From a virus (lineage: Duplodnaviria; Caudoviricetes): DNA of 58,855 bases. Below the pieces are notes generated by a model, which saw nothing but the letters and a program-made list of their open reading frames with translations, searched no databases and had not been told where the DNA came from. The stretch is taken from the IMG/VR virus record IMGVR_UViG_3300034111_001673, positions 1 through 58,855 of that record. One strand, 5' to 3'. A program made the translations under genes and the position numbers. This document shows positions 9,221 through 54,823 of the stretch, one piece after another; position 1 is the stretch's first letter; every line of letters begins with the position of its first letter.

Positions 9221-10117
9221 TTACGCTATTCGTGCAAATTCTCTATGTAGTTTCTTAGCTGCCCTGCAGTAAGCTTTATGAGCTTCTTCGGCGGTATCGA
9301 AATAGCCTAGATGATAAGATTTCTTCTTTTTAATAATAGTAGCTTTATATTTACTTACTTGTTTGCTAAAAGAAACTCCTTTAAAAGCTGAAGTATTGTT
9401 GCTGGGCTTTTTCCTATGACAGCTAATTTGCGATGGAGTTGCCTCTCTTAAATTCTCTATTCTAGTATTCCGAGAGTTGCCGTCCACAAAAGATACACAC
9501 TCAGGTAAATAACCATGAAACATTAGAAATATTAATCGTGATACCATATAGGTTTTTTGTTCAGATGGAATATAAAGAGAAAAGTAACCGCCATTAGTCA
9601 GGAAAAAACAAGCTTTATCACCTTTTTTAATTTTTATACCTTGAGCAACCTTCCAATAAAGCTCTCCATCCCGATACTCCAACAACCTTTTGACCTTTGC
9701 TTGTGTGAGTAGGGATTTAACTTTTTTGACTTCCTCTTCTACGGCTTGGAGTTTTACGGGTTTTGGTTTTTTAATAGTTTCGGTTTGCTCTGCCGATAGG
9801 ACTAGCTGAGCAGGTACTTGCTCCTTATCTAAAGTGGTTTGAAGAGTTTTAATAGTCTCTTTTAGCTTATAAACACCGAACTCTAAATCAATAACTCTAG
9901 CAAGAGTAGGGTCTATTTGTGGTTTTTGTTTAACTTTCTGATATCTCTCGTAAGACATACCAAAGGCATTAGCTGCTATTTTTTCTGCTTTACTTAATTC
10001 TGCTGATTCTAAGTGTATTCCATGAACTTCTAGAGCTGTTGTTATTTTATTTTTAAAATCTTCGTAATCCTTGCGGAAATTCTTGATTTCTTTTATTCCT
10101 CTAAAAAATGTGATCAT
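9221..10117 (-). CDS. HNH-like/AP2 domain endonuclease with an unusual N-terminal extension
   Basis: LLEYRDGELYW...DGNSRNTRIENLREAT...NNTSAFKGVSF...HLGYFDTAEEAHKAY; the canonical DH appears as SF. Confidence 0.75.
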   Translation of the reverse strand: MITFFRGIKEIKNFRKDYEDFKNKITTALEVHGIHLESAELSKAEKIAANAFGMSYERYQKVKQKPQIDPTLARVIDLEFGVYKLKETIKTLQTTLDKEQVPAQLVLSAEQTETIKKPKPVKLQAVEEEVKKVKSLLTQAKVKRLLEYRDGELYWKVAQGIKIKKGDKACFFLTNGGYFSLYIPSEQKTYMVSRLIFLMFHGYLPECVSFVDGNSRNTRIENLREATPSQISCHRKKPSNNTSAFKGVSFSKQVSKYKATIIKKKKSYHLGYFDTAEEAHKAYCRAAKKLHREFARIA

Positions 10118-49265: not shown

Positions 49266-50195
49266 TTAAGCTGTAGAACCTGTTGCGCCAATTACCCCAA
49301 GAGGAGTAAACATACCAAAAGAATAACGACCAGATGCAAGTACTGACATGGTTTCAGTTACGGGATCAGTTGTTACGTTTACTTTAAGCGGACGTCTTAC
49401 AAAATGCTTACGACTTCCCTTAACATTAGTTAATCCAAACCAGTTGCTAGGACTTGTTAAGAAATGGCTTACTTCATAACCTTGTGGAATAGCCTTCATG
49501 TTATAAAGTGCATTTACATCGTTATTAGCCGTTCCTGTTCTAAATACAGATTCAAGTAACCTGCAACCTGAGAACATTAAATCTTGTGGAAGTAGCAATC
49601 TCTCAATTTGAGCATTAATTAGCAGTCCTGCTTGATCTTTCATTTTACCTGCTAGTATTACTGCTTGTTCAACACCCACTTCACTAAAGTCGACATTAAT
49701 ATTAGCGTTGTTATTTGCCCCAACGCGATTAGAATAAACCCCGCCATCGTAAGGCTGAGAAAAGGAGCAAAGAGGTTGTCCGTTAGCCAAAGTAGCTGCC
49801 GTATTAAATGCCTGGTTAAAAGGGTTCATGGCTACTACTTCTCTGGTTTGTTCATAAGAAGTAGTAAGCGATTTAGTACCATTAAAGAACTGATCGGCAT
49901 AAAGATCATCTTCCATGGCAATATTAGTAATCTGAAAACCGAGGGCAAATTCCCGGTGGACGAATTCATAAACAAACCGCTCAGCCATGGTATCCATTTT
50001 AATAGGAGCACCTTGCGTTTTCTCAAGTGCATAGCCAGTCCCTCTAATATCAACCATCCTTTCAGTATGTTTGACAGAATTAGCCTGTTCATAGATTTTG
50101 GTATATTCCCCCTTAAACCGATCATACTGAGATTTTACCTCATAAAGACCTGGCCAAAGCAGACTTGGAATATCACCGGTTGTTATAATAGACAT
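49266..50195 (-). CDS. Major capsid protein (Mu gpT-like, HK97 fold)
   Basis: LLWPGL...EY..IY...E...G.G...K..G...H..FALGF.IT...EDD.Y...RYSFG. Confidence 0.85.
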   Translation of the reverse strand: MSIITTGDIPSLLWPGLYEVKSQYDRFKGEYTKIYEQANSVKHTERMVDIRGTGYALEKTQGAPIKMDTMAERFVYEFVHREFALGFQITNIAMEDDLYADQFFNGTKSLTTSYEQTREVVAMNPFNQAFNTAATLANGQPLCSFSQPYDGGVYSNRVGANNNANINVDFSEVGVEQAVILAGKMKDQAGLLINAQIERLLLPQDLMFSGCRLLESVFRTGTANNDVNALYNMKAIPQGYEVSHFLTSPSNWFGLTNVKGSRKHFVRRPLKVNVTTDPVTETMSVLASGRYSFGMFTPLGVIGATGSTA

Positions 50196-50197
50196 AA

Positions 50198-50332
50198 TTA
50201 ATTACCTTTGTTTTTAGTTTTACTTTTCTTTACTGATCCTGCCTTAACAGGTGTTTTTTCCTTCTTTTTTTTTGGTAGATATAATCCTTCCTTTAAAAGA
50301 GACGGCATATTACCGCTTGTTATTATGGACAT
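50198..50332 (-). CDS. 44-aa peptide: capsid-like N-terminus plus Lys-rich tail (not in ORF track)
   Basis: MSIITSGNMPSLLKEGLYLPKKKKEKTPVKAGSVKKSKTKNKGN; AAGG RBS; stop 2 nt before the MCP ATG. Confidence 0.65.
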   Translation of the reverse strand: MSIITSGNMPSLLKEGLYLPKKKKEKTPVKAGSVKKSKTKNKGN

Positions 50333-50345
50333 AACCTTATGCTCC

Positions 50346-51122
50346 TCAGGCTGTTGGACCTAATACGCCGCTTGATCCGTACATATGCTTGTTAAACTTA
50401 ACTAGTAGGTTAGTAAATGGCATATCTACTCCCGGTACTAATCCTGTAGGATTTGCATTACCGGTAATTACAGGATCAATTCCAATAATTTTTACGTCTA
50501 AGGTAACTGTAGTAGCTAAAGTTGAGCCATCGAGATAGTAAACAGAACCATATACGTTGCTACCGGTACGTGGATTTTGACCACCTGCCATAGCATTAGC
50601 ATTCGTGAAGGTTATTCCTGCTACTGATAAATTGGCATTAAGACCAAACCCGGTTGCTAAAAAAGTAATTCCTGTTGCAGCTGCAAGAGAACTTGATACT
50701 TGAACTCTAAATACTGCCATTGGATCGTCATTAACATATGCAATAATACGTGTGCCAGCTTTTACCGCTCTACCGCCTGGCCAGTAATCAGACTCTACAA
50801 GTATACCGGTATTTGCATCAGTATAAGCGCAGCTTATGAACACCCCAAGGAAAGCATCTGCTTCTGCCGTTGCAATAGGTTGTACCGCTGATCCGTTTGT
50901 TGGACCTGATAACTTTTGTGGTGCTATCGTTCCTGCCATGGCAGAAAGGCCTGGAGCACTTACAAATTTAATGGGATCACCTTGAAAAATACTGTTTGGC
51001 TGCGTTGTTAAGCCGTCAGCGGATGCGTAAATAAAATATTGACCTAGTTTTTGTGTTCCGCCATTTCCTATTTGAGATTGAACTATTTGCAATCCATAAG
51101 GAGCGTTAATGCCGTTAGACAT
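50346..51122 (-). CDS. Capsid decoration/minor capsid protein
   Basis: NAPYGL...IFQGD.I...LGVF...Y.D...YWP...YV.DDP. Confidence 0.65.
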   Translation of the reverse strand: MSNGINAPYGLQIVQSQIGNGGTQKLGQYFIYASADGLTTQPNSIFQGDPIKFVSAPGLSAMAGTIAPQKLSGPTNGSAVQPIATAEADAFLGVFISCAYTDANTGILVESDYWPGGRAVKAGTRIIAYVNDDPMAVFRVQVSSSLAAATGITFLATGFGLNANLSVAGITFTNANAMAGGQNPRTGSNVYGSVYYLDGSTLATTVTLDVKIIGIDPVITGNANPTGLVPGVDMPFTNLLVKFNKHMYGSSGVLGPTA

Positions 51123-51385: not shown

Positions 51386-51415
51386 ATTATAGCAAAAATA
51401 CTGCTACTTTTGCAA
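51386..51415 (-). promoter_or_regulatory. Probable extended -10 promoter for the capsid operon
   Basis: Minus strand TTGCAA-18-TATAAT with a TGn extension. Confidence 0.5.
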
Positions 51416-51439: not shown

Positions 51440-51826
51440 TTAGATATCTTCAATCCCTTGAGCTAAAATAAACTCCAACTTTGTCTTTTTTAATTCTAGT
51501 TGTTCTTGTTGGATTTGATTAAATATTTTTACCCATTTTTTATAATTAATTTTAAATATAGCTTTCTTTCCTTTTCTTAGATCATTTTTTACTTTTTCAT
51601 TACCTAAAGCTATTCTAGTTATTCGTATTAAATACAAATCATCGTCATCGGCTAACATCTTTTTTAGACTACTGGTTGCATATCCTGTAATACAATCGTC
51701 AAAAAAATCATTTGGGAAATCAAACACAATAATAAGACTATATAACCCATCTTCATCCAAAGATATTTCAACAGAATATTTATTTTCTGATAGCGCGCAT
51801 ATTTCTTCTATTTGATATTCATACAT
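51440..51826 (-). CDS. Hypothetical AT-rich moron
   Basis: 128-aa ORF inserted in the head operon. Confidence 0.55.
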   Translation of the reverse strand: MYEYQIEEICALSENKYSVEISLDEDGLYSLIIVFDFPNDFFDDCITGYATSSLKKMLADDDDLYLIRITRIALGNEKVKNDLRKGKKAIFKINYKKWVKIFNQIQQEQLELKKTKLEFILAQGIEDI

Positions 51827-51857
51827 AACATATTCTCTCGATTAAATTCTTTAAAAA

Positions 51858-52949
51858 TTAACTACCAAATACCACAACAGATACGCCATCAAGTACAGGA
51901 AGTAAATTACCGAGCGTATCGGTTGCAAAAATGATGACCTCCGTCGCTGATCTAGACCTAAAGAACACCTGAAACGGCGCTATGACCTCCGTTCCGCGTG
52001 CTAATGCCGGTAATACTAAATAATTACCATCAGGAAAAGGAGTAGCAAACGTTATAACATATGACCCTTGCGCTCCGCTAACCGAGGCTATATTAAAGCT
52101 GCTCTCTATCTGGATATTATTAGTCGGGGCATTATTATCGTAAAAGAAACAATAAGCCTTAGCAGTAGCAGGATTTATAATCTTCCCCGGTATTGTCATA
52201 TTACCGACATTGTCAATTTGAGTACTATTTAAATTGATTACTCCATCATCTACAGTAGCGAGGTTAATATCCTCACTCCCGCTTGCCGTAGTAATGGTAT
52301 TTACCGAGATTAAGAGATTACCTACATTAATACTGGATAATCCTACTAGAGAATCTGCTAAATTAATAATTACATCATTTGTTTCCCCATCACCGCTTTG
52401 GACGTTTATATTAGAGCCGCCTCCTATCTTTCGAGTTACAAAACTTAATGGAGTATTGCCGGTTATTACTAAAAACCCATTCTGTACTTGAGTAGCTAGA
52501 TTATTTAAATTATTTAACGAATCGGCAATTTTAAAAATGATGTTACCGGTCGGAGGAGTAACAGTTGAATTTGTAATCTGCAAGCTGTTATTCTGGCTTT
52601 CCGTAGAAAAGCTTACTATACCGCTGCTACCGCCACCAAAAGGTATTACCTGCCATACTCCCGCGCTGGTTAGATTCTCAGTGAGATATATCTGTATTAC
52701 TTCCCCTGGAATAATTACGTTAGTTAACGGCGTTCCGTCATTATATAAGAGAGTAAAGTCTTTTTGTCCGACATTATTAAACAACAGGCTAGTACCGGTT
52801 TCTACAGTATTGGCAGGCGGCAAAGTAATTGTATACGCATCATTGCTAGAGCTAACATTATTAATATCGCTGGCGATTTCTCCTTCAGTGCGGGGATAAG
52901 GCCAAGATAGTTTAATATCGCTATTTAATATGATTTTAGAATATGACAT
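51858..52949 (-). CDS. Head/tail fibre-like structural protein
   Basis: TITLPPA...G; C-terminal AKAYCFF...SFNIASVS...GSYVITFATPF. Confidence 0.6.
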   Translation of the reverse strand: MSYSKIILNSDIKLSWPYPRTEGEIASDINNVSSSNDAYTITLPPANTVETGTSLLFNNVGQKDFTLLYNDGTPLTNVIIPGEVIQIYLTENLTSAGVWQVIPFGGGSSGIVSFSTESQNNSLQITNSTVTPPTGNIIFKIADSLNNLNNLATQVQNGFLVITGNTPLSFVTRKIGGGSNINVQSGDGETNDVIINLADSLVGLSSINVGNLLISVNTITTASGSEDINLATVDDGVINLNSTQIDNVGNMTIPGKIINPATAKAYCFFYDNNAPTNNIQIESSFNIASVSGAQGSYVITFATPFPDGNYLVLPALARGTEVIAPFQVFFRSRSATEVIIFATDTLGNLLPVLDGVSVVVFGS

Positions 52950-52958
52950 GATATTCTT

Positions 52959-53414
52959 CTACATTGCTCTATCAGAAAACGGCATGACCGGATTGTAGAT
53001 ATCGGTCTGTACTTTTTGCAAAGTATCTCGCATTACTCTTACGGCTTTTTGTTCATAATATTGCTGCTCTTTTAGCCCGTAGCGTTCATCACGTGCTAAA
53101 ACAATAGTATCACCGGTAGTAATACAATCATTTTCCGATCTTAAGTCTCCTCTATAAGTACGTTTGTTTTTAAGCCTATCAGGAGATACGATATACCACT
53201 TCTTTGCCAGTAACCTATTAATACGTTCAGGGCTATTAAAGGCAAAGTAATATTCCTCGCCCGGTTGTTTTATCTCATCAATTAAAGCTTTAAAAGGACA
53301 GGTTGAATCAGTGAACATTAAATCAAAATCACTTCCTTCAAGTTCATGCTCCCTGATATCTCTATCAATAGATAGAAATTCATTATTTTTGTCTTGTTTA
53401 TATTTAATTGCCAT
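52959..53414 (-). CDS. Conserved head-module protein
   Basis: Coupled to the scaffold gene. Confidence 0.55.
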   Translation of the reverse strand: MAIKYKQDKNNEFLSIDRDIREHELEGSDFDLMFTDSTCPFKALIDEIKQPGEEYYFAFNSPERINRLLAKKWYIVSPDRLKNKRTYRGDLRSENDCITTGDTIVLARDERYGLKEQQYYEQKAVRVMRDTLQKVQTDIYNPVMPFSDRAM

Positions 53415-54390
53415 TTTTTGACCTCATTTCTTTGTTACGTTGATCTAGAAGCTCCTTGTACCTCTCGTAAGACATACCAAAAGCAAGAGCTGCCTTTTTC
53501 TCTCTATCGCTTAATTCCCTTGTTTTTGGATCTGGTATTGATTCTCGTGGAGCGCGACTGCGAACTGCTCCAAAATGTTTGGCAGGAATCATGGCTGAGG
53601 AAGTATCCTGCATTTTTAAATTATCAATATAATCATCAATCATGCCGTAATAACTACCAGAGCCTATTAGATGTTCTTTTCCTCCGCTTTGGTATTTACG
53701 ATCCAGTTTAGTAATAAAGGATAATACTGAGGTCGCTAGCTTCTCATCATACTCAGGGGCGTTTCTATCTACTTCAGGATTACTTTCAAGCCAGCTATAT
53801 AACCTATCTTCATATTCCCTAGCTCGAACCTGATTTAGATGCTCTGGTGAGTATTCTTCTTTAGGAAAAGTGGCTATTCTAGATGCCTCATTTAAGGCAT
53901 GGGTCGCCTTTGAAATATCCGCAGTAGCTCTGCTAACTCCAGCAGCATCCCCGTTTTCCAGTGCTAATTGAAGCCGTGCCTGAGCCATTTCAAGTTCGCT
54001 GGCAACATTGTTCTTATAATGGGTAGAACCGGTATTAATAGCTTGGCTGAGCATTTGTTCCATTTGTAGTTTTTCTTGCTGTAACTGCTCTAATTGCTCA
54101 GCAAGCTTTACCTTTTCTTCACGTTCTTTTTTTAATTTAGACCAGTATTTTTCCTTGTCTTTGTCAGGAGCAGAGGTTTTAGTAGGCTTTTCTTCTTTTT
54201 CGGAAACATCTGCGGAAATATCGCTTTTATCATCGCTACTATCTACACCTTGAGTATCTTGCCCTAAGTCTTTAGTTTCTACTTCTGCCTCGCTAGCTTC
54301 ATTCTTTGAATCTTTATTTTCGGCTACTTCTTTTAAAGGTGGAATAGCAGCGTTTAAGTCGCTTGTATTTTCAATATCTATTTTAAACAT
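53404..54390 (-). CDS. Capsid scaffolding protein
   Basis: Acidic N-terminus, coiled coil, W...NP, C-terminal LSDREKKAALAFGMSYERY helix pair. Confidence 0.75.
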   Translation of the reverse strand: MFKIDIENTSDLNAAIPPLKEVAENKDSKNEASEAEVETKDLGQDTQGVDSSDDKSDISADVSEKEEKPTKTSAPDKDKEKYWSKLKKEREEKVKLAEQLEQLQQEKLQMEQMLSQAINTGSTHYKNNVASELEMAQARLQLALENGDAAGVSRATADISKATHALNEASRIATFPKEEYSPEHLNQVRAREYEDRLYSWLESNPEVDRNAPEYDEKLATSVLSFITKLDRKYQSGGKEHLIGSGSYYGMIDDYIDNLKMQDTSSAMIPAKHFGAVRSRAPRESIPDPKTRELSDREKKAALAFGMSYERYKELLDQRNKEMRSKNGN

Positions 54391-54394
54391 ATTC

Positions 54395-54823
54395 TTACCT
54401 TGATACTTTTGATGGATTATCGACTAGCAGCTTGATTTTAAAATCCTCTACCATAATGATCGGTTCACCCTCATATTTTGACTGCAATGATGAACCACGC
54501 GGGAATATGACCCAGTCTCCGGCTTTGACGTAAGGGCCGCTTGGAAACTGATCGCCCTTATAACTATCGGGGCCCAGCTTTAATACCATCCCGACCATTG
54601 AGTTATATTCCAGGTCATCCTTTACGGCCGTTTGCGGAATAATAACTCCGCCTCTTGTAACTTCTTCAACAGGGGGTTTGTAAATAAGAATTAAGACGTT
54701 AATGCCGGTAACCGATACTTCCTTAAATCTTTCAATCATTACCTCCTTATTAAAAGCTTCCAGATCAATGCCTTTGGTTTTAAAATCTTCCGGTTTGTAA
54801 TTGGCTATTTCACAGTTAGTCAT
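54395..54823 (-). CDS. groES: GroES-like co-chaperonin
   Basis: EEVTRGGVIIP...GMVLKLGP...VKAGDWVIF...YEGE. Confidence 0.8.
   Translation of the reverse strand: MTNCEIANYKPEDFKTKGIDLEAFNKEVMIERFKEVSVTGINVLILIYKPPVEEVTRGGVIIPQTAVKDDLEYNSMVGMVLKLGPDSYKGDQFPSGPYVKAGDWVIFPRGSSLQSKYEGEPIIMVEDFKIKLLVDNPSKVSR

Follow-up and report, generated by a model that had tools for sequence, protein, structure and literature searches.

A short reading frame lies directly ahead of the capsid gene of this phage, and its predicted product starts like the capsid protein and ends in a run of lysines. The question is what such a frame does. It may encode a peptide that takes part in head assembly, it may be a leader cistron that brings ribosomes to the capsid gene, or it may be left over from a duplication. 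The initial annotation described it as a hidden mini-gene in which a copy of the capsid N-arm is fused to a histone-like lysine tail. We analysed the window, i.e., the whole stretch of 58,855 nucleotides, together with related sequences. The following features are needed for the argument.

Mini-ORF (50198..50332, minus strand): 44 codons and a TAA stop; present in 65 of 73 related sequences and gene-called in public protein sets (46 clusters).
Capsid N-arm copy (50279..50332, minus strand): 18 codons (MSIITSGNMPSLLKEGLY), 13/18 identical to the start of the capsid protein.
Lys-rich tail (50201..50278, minus strand): 26 codons.
A9 homopolymer run (50265..50273, minus strand): within the tail, covering KKK codons; in relatives, A runs reach a maximum length of 5 to 9.
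Shine-Dalgarno-like signals (50335..50347, minus strand): GAGGAG (50342..50347; 9 nt spacing) and AAGG (50335..50338; 2 nt spacing) ahead of the mini-ORF ATG.
Major capsid protein gene (49266..50195, minus strand): 309 aa, HK97 fold, related to Mu gpT.
Original N-arm (50142..50195, minus strand): the first 18 capsid codons; L13, P15, and G16 are almost unchanged among 65 capsid homologues.
Capsid Shine-Dalgarno AAGG (50205..50208, minus strand): 9 nt ahead of the capsid ATG, inside the last mini-ORF codons (K-G).
Upstream gene (50346..51122, minus strand): 258 aa; syntenic with the gene which directly abuts the capsid gene in distant relatives.
Putative scaffolding protein gene (53404..54390, minus strand): 328 aa; the N-terminal half is acidic and the C-terminal part carries a conserved motif; the role is assigned from position and composition.

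The mini-ORF and its start and stop signals

The 44-aa product of the mini-ORF consists of MSIITSGNMPSLLKEGLY followed by LPKKKKEKTPVKAGSVKKSKTKNKGN, and is also denoted by the stretch SIITSGNMPSLLK.... The capsid protein starts with MSIITTGDIPSLLWPGLY, and the identity of 13/18 to the mini-ORF arm confirms the copy reported before. When all six frames of the whole window were searched, the second-best 18-mer matched the capsid start at 8/18, and 20 shuffles of the window gave 7 or 8. The two 54-nt arms, in the copy and in the capsid gene, differ at 19 positions (counted by eye), many of them synonymous. By the Nei-Gojobori method, pS is 0.57 and pN is 0.26. The codon of serine 11, for example, is TCT in one arm and AGT in the other.

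A K-rich tail follows the arm as described, with 11–12 K and 1–2 E in the window (counted by eye), and the net charge of the whole peptide in the 65 relatives that keep it is +7 to +12. The term histone-like can be retained for the basic composition of this tail but not as a family assignment, as the peptide has no family match in Pfam (E≤0.01) or PHROG. Neither a fold nor a family match to histone-like or nucleoid proteins (HU, H1-type) was found, and the likeness is compositional only. In the ESM Atlas, the best neighbours are unnamed, with a score of 0.77, which is below the meaningful level.

The ribosome binding site which the initial annotation had assigned to the mini-ORF is present in the form of the two signals listed above. 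GAGGAG overlaps the TGA of the upstream 258-aa gene, and in most haplotypes GGAG or AAGG signals comparable to those of the window stand ahead of the mini-ORF. At the other end, the TAA is followed by TT and the capsid ATG. The gap is thus 2 nt, and the stop does lie just before the capsid start. With start signals of its own and a stop beside the following start codon, the mini-ORF has the positional features of a coupling leader cistron. As the stop lies near the capsid ATG (1–28 nt ahead of it among the relatives), the mini-ORF would be co-transcribed with the capsid gene, and, judged from its position, it is probably also translationally coupled to it.

The downstream gene and its neighbourhood

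The 309-aa neighbour is an HK97-fold major capsid protein, as the initial annotation had assumed, and this is supported in three ways. By tblastn, it matches annotated capsid proteins at 32–36% identity, among them those of Pelagibacter phage HTVC023P, Planktothrix phage Pag-Yong1, and Roseobacter phages CRP-901/902. The protein itself has no direct match in Pfam or PHROG, and its homologues carry PF25209 and PF10124. An AlphaFold2 model (65 sequences) with a pLDDT of 82 is matched by Foldseek with a probability of 1.0 to the capsid proteins of HK97, T5, phiXacJX1, and other capsid proteins of the HK97 fold. The mini-ORF product does not belong to this fold, which comprises A and P domains, an E-loop, and a spine helix, as it has 44 aa of which only residues 1–18 are capsid-like. 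Neither the capsid protein nor the upstream gene matched a solved structure by sequence.

The least confident part of the capsid model is the first 20 residues (pLDDT ~63), as would be expected for a flexible N-arm. Read by eye, the N-termini of the relatives' capsid proteins have a ...LL..GL pattern in common.

The gene order resembles that of HTVC023P-type podophages: a GroES-like gene, a putative scaffold, small genes, a gene of ~200–260 aa, and the capsid gene. The sequence is found in lake and freshwater metagenomes. By analogy with P22, the putative scaffold is a candidate partner of the N-arm. Its C-terminus, compared in 35/80 sequences, hardly varies, regardless of whether a mini-ORF is present and of which type, and no co-variation was seen. 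The upstream 258-aa gene has at least four alternative 3' ends among the relatives and, as far as these alignments tell, its junction with the capsid gene is a mosaic hot spot.

Conservation and losses among relatives

IMG/VR contains 79 loci with capsid proteins 88–99% identical to that of the window, and in 72 of these, the capsid start is covered together with 150 nt or more of upstream sequence. Seven loci were dropped because the capsid 5' end is missing (L065, L069, L071, L073, L075) or because less than 150 nt upstream are available (L014, L031). Together with the window, this gives 73 sequences with 51 distinct upstream haplotypes.

The mini-ORF is kept in 65 of the 73 sequences and encodes 35 distinct peptides of 33–45 aa. 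Its stop lies 2 nt ahead of the capsid ATG in 53 of the 65, 1 nt in one, 11–15 nt in seven, and 28 nt in four. On the capsid-gene tree, the mini-ORF is found from the deepest branch (L066–68) to the crown, and the losses are scattered. Divergent peptides such as MSIVTTGNINSLLEKGLYVPKKKVVKQKPIK... and MINTSNINSLLEPGLYVPKPKVKLPIK... have the same pattern.

The eight sequences lacking the mini-ORF result from at least three different deletions. Only the arm is gone in L020, L039, and L041, a larger deletion is found in L036, L042, L049, and L050, and in L060 everything is gone down to the capsid leader. Four further loci of the 73 sequences have frameshift-truncated tails. Given these eight losses, the four truncated tails, and a start-less remnant in a sister clade (see below), the predicted gene is dispensable in nature.

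A profile of 12 peptides was searched against a set of 5.8 billion proteins and found 46 clusters (18–79 aa), all of the mini-ORF family, some of which had already been called by JGI as “hypothetical protein.” An exhaustive HMMER search of 1.84 billion representatives gave six matches at E≤0.001, five from the mini-ORF family and one repetitive 839-aa protein. By these searches, the mini-ORF family is real in many independent assemblies and is confined to one freshwater phage clade. The expectation of a conserved ORF upstream of capsid homologues thus holds for the close relatives but not for the distant ones examined, none of which has it. In HTVC023P, Pag-Yong1, and DSL-LC04, there is no mini-ORF, and the spacing between the upstream gene and the capsid start is 16, 24, and 2 nt, respectively. 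The mini-ORF is likewise absent from all 19 examined IMG/VR loci with a capsid identity of at most 50%, in which the upstream gene ends 17–36 nt before the capsid gene. In total, 25 hand-chosen loci from two scans were examined, and most of those omitted fall into the 39–43% identity group. A search of IMG/VR with P0060 gave no match.

Selection on the predicted peptide

Arm: The 26 arm haplotypes are connected by 75 changes on a minimum spanning tree, and 51 of the 75 are at codon position 3. Synonymous changes number 44 and non-synonymous ones 31, whereas random mutation at the same transition bias would give 27% synonymous changes (binomial p=9e-9). The count covers the 62 sequences with an 18-codon arm and leaves out L066–68, whose arms have 16–17 codons. 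In the mini-ORF frame, the synonymous fraction is 0.57, as compared with 0.17 and 0.11 in the other two frames. No arm haplotype has an in-frame stop; in the other frames, stops occur in 26/26 and 8/26 haplotypes.

Tail: The 21 alignable haplotypes differ by 34 changes, 20 of them at position 3; 18 of the 34 are synonymous and 16 are not (30% expected, p=0.004). This count rests on 21 of 36 haplotypes, since frameshifted, indel-bearing, or very divergent tails were left out (L002, L007, L010, L015, L019, L024, L048, L053, L055, L061, L062, L064, L066, L068, and L078). The tail signal is a weaker version of the arm signal. Spanning-tree counts ignore recombination and homoplasy, and the frame-specific pattern is independent of both.

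Divergence from the capsid gene: With the same partners, the arm pS follows the capsid pS (0.18–0.75 vs. 0.34–0.72; for L066, 0.75 vs. 0.72). The arm pN is ~2-fold lower in the most divergent pairs and at least 5-fold lower in closer pairs. Between the window and L066, the capsid dS is ~2.4, i.e., synonymous sites are saturated, yet the ORF is still there with its start codon, its SLL..GLY core, and its basic tail. The lineages over which the mini-ORF persists span a capsid dS of ~1.3–2.4. The dN/dS of the mini-ORF is roughly 0.3–0.4 as compared with 0.04–0.11 for the capsid gene, which corresponds to a looser constraint.

Indels: Most indels are in frame. Those beside the A-run change the frame and are either compensated or uncompensated. 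A TA insertion is offset by one additional A in L002 or by the loss of 2 nt in L010, L016, L048, and L078. In L053–57, it is uncompensated and leads to a 33-aa product.

Residues kept: N8, S11, L12, L13, G16, L17, and Y18 are kept in the copy, and L13 and G16 are among the nearly invariant residues of the capsid N-arm. Their retention suggests that the copy can still occupy a site designed for the arm. In the crown group, Pro15, which is near-invariant in the capsid protein, is replaced in the copy (KEGLY vs. WPGLY). Hence, the copy is not under the same constraints as the real arm. Together with the loss of the gene in 8 of 73 sequences, this replacement points to a modulatory rather than an essential role.

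The substitution pattern as a whole shows frame-specific purifying selection on the encoded peptide. The initial annotation had stated that an ORF which is not conserved would be a relic of capsid gene replacement. This does not apply here, as the ORF is found in 65/73 sequences and is selected in frame. Conservation, frame-specific purifying selection, and contigs from RNA libraries which span the mini-ORF and the capsid gene together make a functional peptide a better reading than a relic.

Transcription and RNA-level features

Contigs of four RNA libraries from four studies extend across the capsid gene and the mini-ORF and cover 49266..50334, 49831..50334, 49361..50273, and 50230..50334. 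In three runs, they reach further, into a variant upstream gene, and their tail region has indels of 3 and 6 nt. The contigs fit co-transcription; they show no transcript ends, level, or translation, and DNA carry-over is possible. The sole good promoter-like site nearby on the mini-ORF strand is upstream of the 258-aa gene (51415..51386), and promoter-like sites are not enriched over shuffles.

The RNA of the region is predicted to fold no better than shuffled sequence (z = −0.40). Within the arm there is a weak terminator-like hairpin (50316..50302), and the count of such terminator-like structures, 3, is not above that of shuffles (1.8 ± 1.3). Read by eye, the pairs of this hairpin are broken in several haplotypes.

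Other ways of reading the region were considered and rejected. A C-terminal extension of the 258-aa protein would, read by eye, be in frame only in some haplotypes (TAG + 12 nt, TAA + 9 nt) and not in the window or in others. An N-terminal extension of the capsid protein is ruled out by a TAA at −9..−7 in the capsid frame. A −1 slip in the A-run would run into a stop, as in the natural L053 type.

Origin of the mini-ORF

The simplest history that the compared loci suggest is a tandem 5' duplication in the common ancestor. The capsid RBS and the first 18 codons would have been duplicated in tandem in the ancestor of the clade. The copy would then read through an A-rich stretch and on through the capsid leader and its Shine-Dalgarno sequence, giving the Lys-rich tail.

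The last ~30 nt of the tail are indeed the A-rich leader of the capsid gene with its Shine-Dalgarno sequence, and they are conserved even where the mini-ORF is deleted; the AAGG is kept in all 51 haplotypes, including those without the mini-ORF. Since the leader is conserved in loci lacking the mini-ORF, part of the lysine tail is a by-product of this leader. As these ~30 nt are constrained in this way, some of the lysines need no explanation at the protein level.

Tyr18 is common to the copy and the capsid proteins of its own clade, and is Asp in a sister clade, whose capsid proteins are ~70% identical to P0053. In four of six loci of this sister clade, a start-less remnant is found at the same place (...AISNTGNIPVLLKTK...). 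Its frame is open, without ATG, GTG, or TTG. In these four loci, the remnant (...ISNTGNIPVLLK...) overlaps a perfect 11-bp inverted repeat. The remaining two loci contain unrelated filler.

Comparison with known systems

T4 gp61.1: Residues 2–38 of this 54-aa protein align with residues 57–93 of gp23 (17/37 identical, E=3e-9). After the capsid-like part, gp61.1 has IPKKKKE... and continues with IPKKKKEESKEKEE; after its arm, the window peptide has LPKKKKE and continues with LPKKKKEKTPVK. Both proteins therefore have the same design, i.e., a copy of an N-terminal segment of the phage's own capsid protein followed by proline and a lysine run. There are three differences. The T4 gene adjoins the primase gene and is far from gene 23, whereas the mini-ORF adjoins the capsid gene. 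The T4 tail is mixed K and E and roughly neutral. Finally, gp61.1 copies an internal segment of gp23 (57–93), not the initiator end; we take this segment to be the region around the gp23 maturation site. Sequences like gp61.1 gave tblastn matches in 1487 phage records, and gp61.1 itself belongs to phrog_1823 (3e-33). For the mini-ORF peptide of the window and for two divergent relatives, no PHROG match was obtained at E≤10, and they are not members of the gp61.1 family (phrog_1823/phrog_2086); in a pairwise comparison of the mini-ORF peptide with gp61.1, the E-value is 26. Thus, the mini-ORF and T4 gene 61.1 appear to have acquired the same design independently. Its occurrence in two unrelated lineages argues that the design does something.

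Microviridae J/VP8: As described in PMC11281519, these proteins are small and highly basic; one end is buried in a hydrophobic pocket of the capsid protein, on its inner face, and the basic part contacts the packaged DNA. The mini-ORF product is likewise small and strongly basic (33–45 aa, +7 to +12), and a docked end with DNA contact is the mechanism proposed for it. J/VP8 differ in that they belong to ssDNA phages with a jelly-roll capsid in which J is needed for packaging, whereas here we have a tailed dsDNA phage with motor-driven packaging. Moreover, the capsid-like end of the mini-protein is N-terminal and copied from the capsid protein itself, and the charge that it would supply is only a few percent of that of the DNA. 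Sequence membership in J/VP8 was not found: the peptide has no Pfam family at E≤0.01, and the profile search gives its own clade and the 839-aa repetitive protein. The likeness to J/VP8 is functional at most.

P22: As described in PMC9965877, the C-terminal helix-loop-helix of the scaffold binds the coat N-arm, which after maturation reaches into the neighbouring subunit. The phage studied here likewise has an HK97-fold capsid protein with a predicted flexible N-arm and a separate putative scaffold with a conserved C-terminus. A free N-arm copy is not known from P22.

Two-cistron coupling: The mini-ORF is short, has its own Shine-Dalgarno sequence, and stops 2 nt before the next ATG. Engineered bicistronic designs use such a leader cistron, which ends at the next start. 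The difference is that the peptide sequence of the mini-ORF is under selection.

SaPI1 CpmB and P4 Sid: These are capsid-size factors of satellites which mimic an assembly partner and compete for its site. The mini-ORF product would resemble them as a small mimic of a component of the assembly machinery. CpmB and Sid are satellite-encoded and mimic the scaffold, whereas here a phage copies its own coat protein.

Proposed function and alternatives

Our main reading is that the mini-ORF encodes a translated accessory head-assembly microprotein which acts as an arm surrogate and is made together with the capsid protein; we put its probability at roughly 45%. By analogy with P22, an accessory role in head assembly is the most likely function. 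The free copy would occupy, or compete for, the site of the capsid N-arm. This site would lie on the C-terminal helix pair of the scaffold, as in P22, or else on an adjacent capsid subunit. With its polybasic tail, the mini-protein may hold on to a polyanion, namely the outer layer of the DNA or the acidic scaffold half, and it would act as a non-essential, modulatory assembly factor. Docking of the arm together with contact or neutralisation of the packaged DNA by the tail, or a regulation of assembly by the peptide, had been proposed initially. Bulk neutralisation is implausible, as ~415 copies, presumably the count of a T=7 capsid, with a charge of +10 would balance ~3–4% of the ~118,000 phosphates of a genome which we take to be ~59 kb. 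A complex prediction of the capsid protein with the mini-protein, run without controls, scored 0.00 in both runs and speaks neither for nor against binding.

It is less probable, and on the whole unlikely, that the mini-ORF is a leader cistron only, which delivers ribosomes to the capsid start or melts RNA structure while the peptide is inert. The strong Shine-Dalgarno sequence of its own, a stop that never lies more than 28 nt from the capsid ATG in the 65 sequences and lies only 1–2 nt from it in 54 of them, and the overlap of the tail with the capsid leader and Shine-Dalgarno sequence would all suit such a device. So would the tolerated natural losses (8/73) and a 13-codon ORF in the sister clade that ends in the capsid Shine-Dalgarno sequence. 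Under this reading, however, the peptide should drift, and amino acid changes are suppressed in the mini-ORF frame only, in the arm as well as in the tail. Synonymous sites are free, which argues against a constraint at the RNA level, the folding of the region is not above that of shuffles, and distant relatives express their capsid gene without such a cistron. Retention of an inert frame, i.e., a non-functional relic of a partial duplication or of a capsid-module exchange which is open by chance and decaying, we consider improbable. It would fit the mosaic nature of the junction, where at least four upstream-gene 3' ends and at least three deletion alleles occur and L098 and L099 have different fillers, as well as the start-less remnants with their inverted repeat in four sister-clade loci and the truncated tails in four loci. 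The changes, however, are frame-specific and mostly synonymous, the ORF, start, and basic tail have outlasted a capsid dS of ~1.3–2.4, and the arm haplotypes are free of stops in this frame (0/26) as compared with 26/26 and 8/26 elsewhere.

The mini-ORF product could also be an immune decoy: by analogy, the free N-arm could bind a capsid-recognising defence sensor of the host and blunt its activation. Defence systems that sense capsids exist (PMC12578639), and the presence of the mini-ORF among close relatives is patchy, as is typical for genes of counter-defence. Neither for this phage nor for its uncultured host, however, is such a sensor known, and the position next to the capsid gene and the coupling to it speak for assembly rather than early counter-defence; we regard this as a distinctly improbable explanation. 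The least probable one, with very little in its favour, is an RNA or DNA element such as an operator, a terminator, or a recombination linker which happens to be open. The hairpin within the arm and the 11-bp inverted repeat over the homologous sister-clade remnant would fit an element of this kind. Against it, the variation follows third codon positions rather than base pairing, the hairpin loses pairs in several haplotypes, and neither the folding energy nor the terminator count exceeds that of shuffled sequence. Among these explanations, we prefer the arm-surrogate microprotein.

Biological significance

What happens to the flexible N-arm of HK97-fold capsid proteins while the head assembles is, to our knowledge, known for few model phages only. 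Our searches of open-access papers and bioRxiv preprints found no free arm-mimicking protein. It is conceivable, if rather doubtful, that free copies of a capsid N-arm with a lysine run form a recurrent, convergent class of phage microproteins which serve as arm surrogates or as decoys of capsid-directed immunity. One such birth would have occurred in the HTVC023P-like podophage clade by tandem 5' duplication, and another would be T4 gene 61.1 and its relatives. The surrogates would occupy arm-docking sites on the scaffold or coat and tether a polyanion.

The locus would offer a clean example of gene birth, in which a partial 5' duplication reads into an A-rich leader and is then retained by selection. 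It also provides a natural set of variants, with the ORF present, absent, or tail-truncated, in an abundant clade of lake phages. T4 gene 61.1 would be a second, independent instance in a genetically tractable phage. If the peptide binds the scaffold or coat, it would represent a new type of assembly modulator; if it only delivers ribosomes, the mini-ORF would be a two-cistron expression device of natural origin, serving a gene with very high expression.

The junction between the 258-aa gene and the mini-ORF

The 258-aa gene (50346..51122, (-)) is the upstream neighbour of the mini-ORF, the 44-aa ORF that joins a capsid N-arm copy to a Lys-rich tail. When its 3' end in the window (50346..50380) was compared with the homologous ends in the close relatives L001-L079, at least four unrelated 3' ends were found. 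Because of this diversity among close relatives, the junction between the 258-aa gene and the mini-ORF is regarded as a recombination hot spot.

In the sister-clade loci L097, L100, L101, and L102, an arm-copy remnant (...ISNTGNIPVLLK...) without a start codon lies about 60-115 nt 5' of the capsid start, which is at ~1501 in these loci. A perfect inverted repeat of 11 bp, whose loop is 7 nt long, overlaps the remnant; 3' of the remnant there is a 13-codon ORF, which ends within the capsid Shine-Dalgarno sequence.

Among the sigma-70-like sites in this region, the best one (51386..51415, (-); TTGCAA and TATAAT spaced by 18 nt, with TG upstream) sits in the long leader 5' of the 258-aa gene. It is a possible promoter of an operon in which the mini-ORF and the capsid gene follow the 258-aa gene.

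Neighbouring genes and the putative scaffold motif

The following genes were assigned by domain or family match, by position and composition, or by sequence match, respectively:

42705..44183 (-), 492-aa protein with a Peptidase_S74 intramolecular chaperone domain (domain match)
54395..54823 (-), GroES-like co-chaperonin gene (family match, Cpn10, E=3.6e-8)
53404..54390 (-), putative scaffold gene with the C-terminal motif ELSDREKKAALAFGMSYERYKEL at residues 292-314 (position/composition)
9221..10117 (-), 298-aa ORF with a copy of this motif near its N-terminus, residues 40-62 (sequence match)

The Peptidase_S74 domain resembles that of endosialidase-type tail fibres. The interval 51440..52949 (-), flanked by the 151-aa and 258-aa genes, contains a 363-aa gene, which has a weak tail-fibre PHROG match, and a 128-aa gene; neither has a counterpart at the same position in the distant relatives HTVC023P, Pag-Yong1, and DSL-LC04. 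The GroES-like gene is directly 5' of the putative scaffold gene, an arrangement common to the window and HTVC023P-type phages.

The motif and its copy in the 298-aa ORF, which was labelled HNH-AP2 in the first reading of the sequence alone, are identical at 16 of 23 residues (E=3e-6). It is a second assembly-interface segment duplicated into another protein within this genome. In the 298-aa ORF, such a copy might serve as a head-targeting tag.
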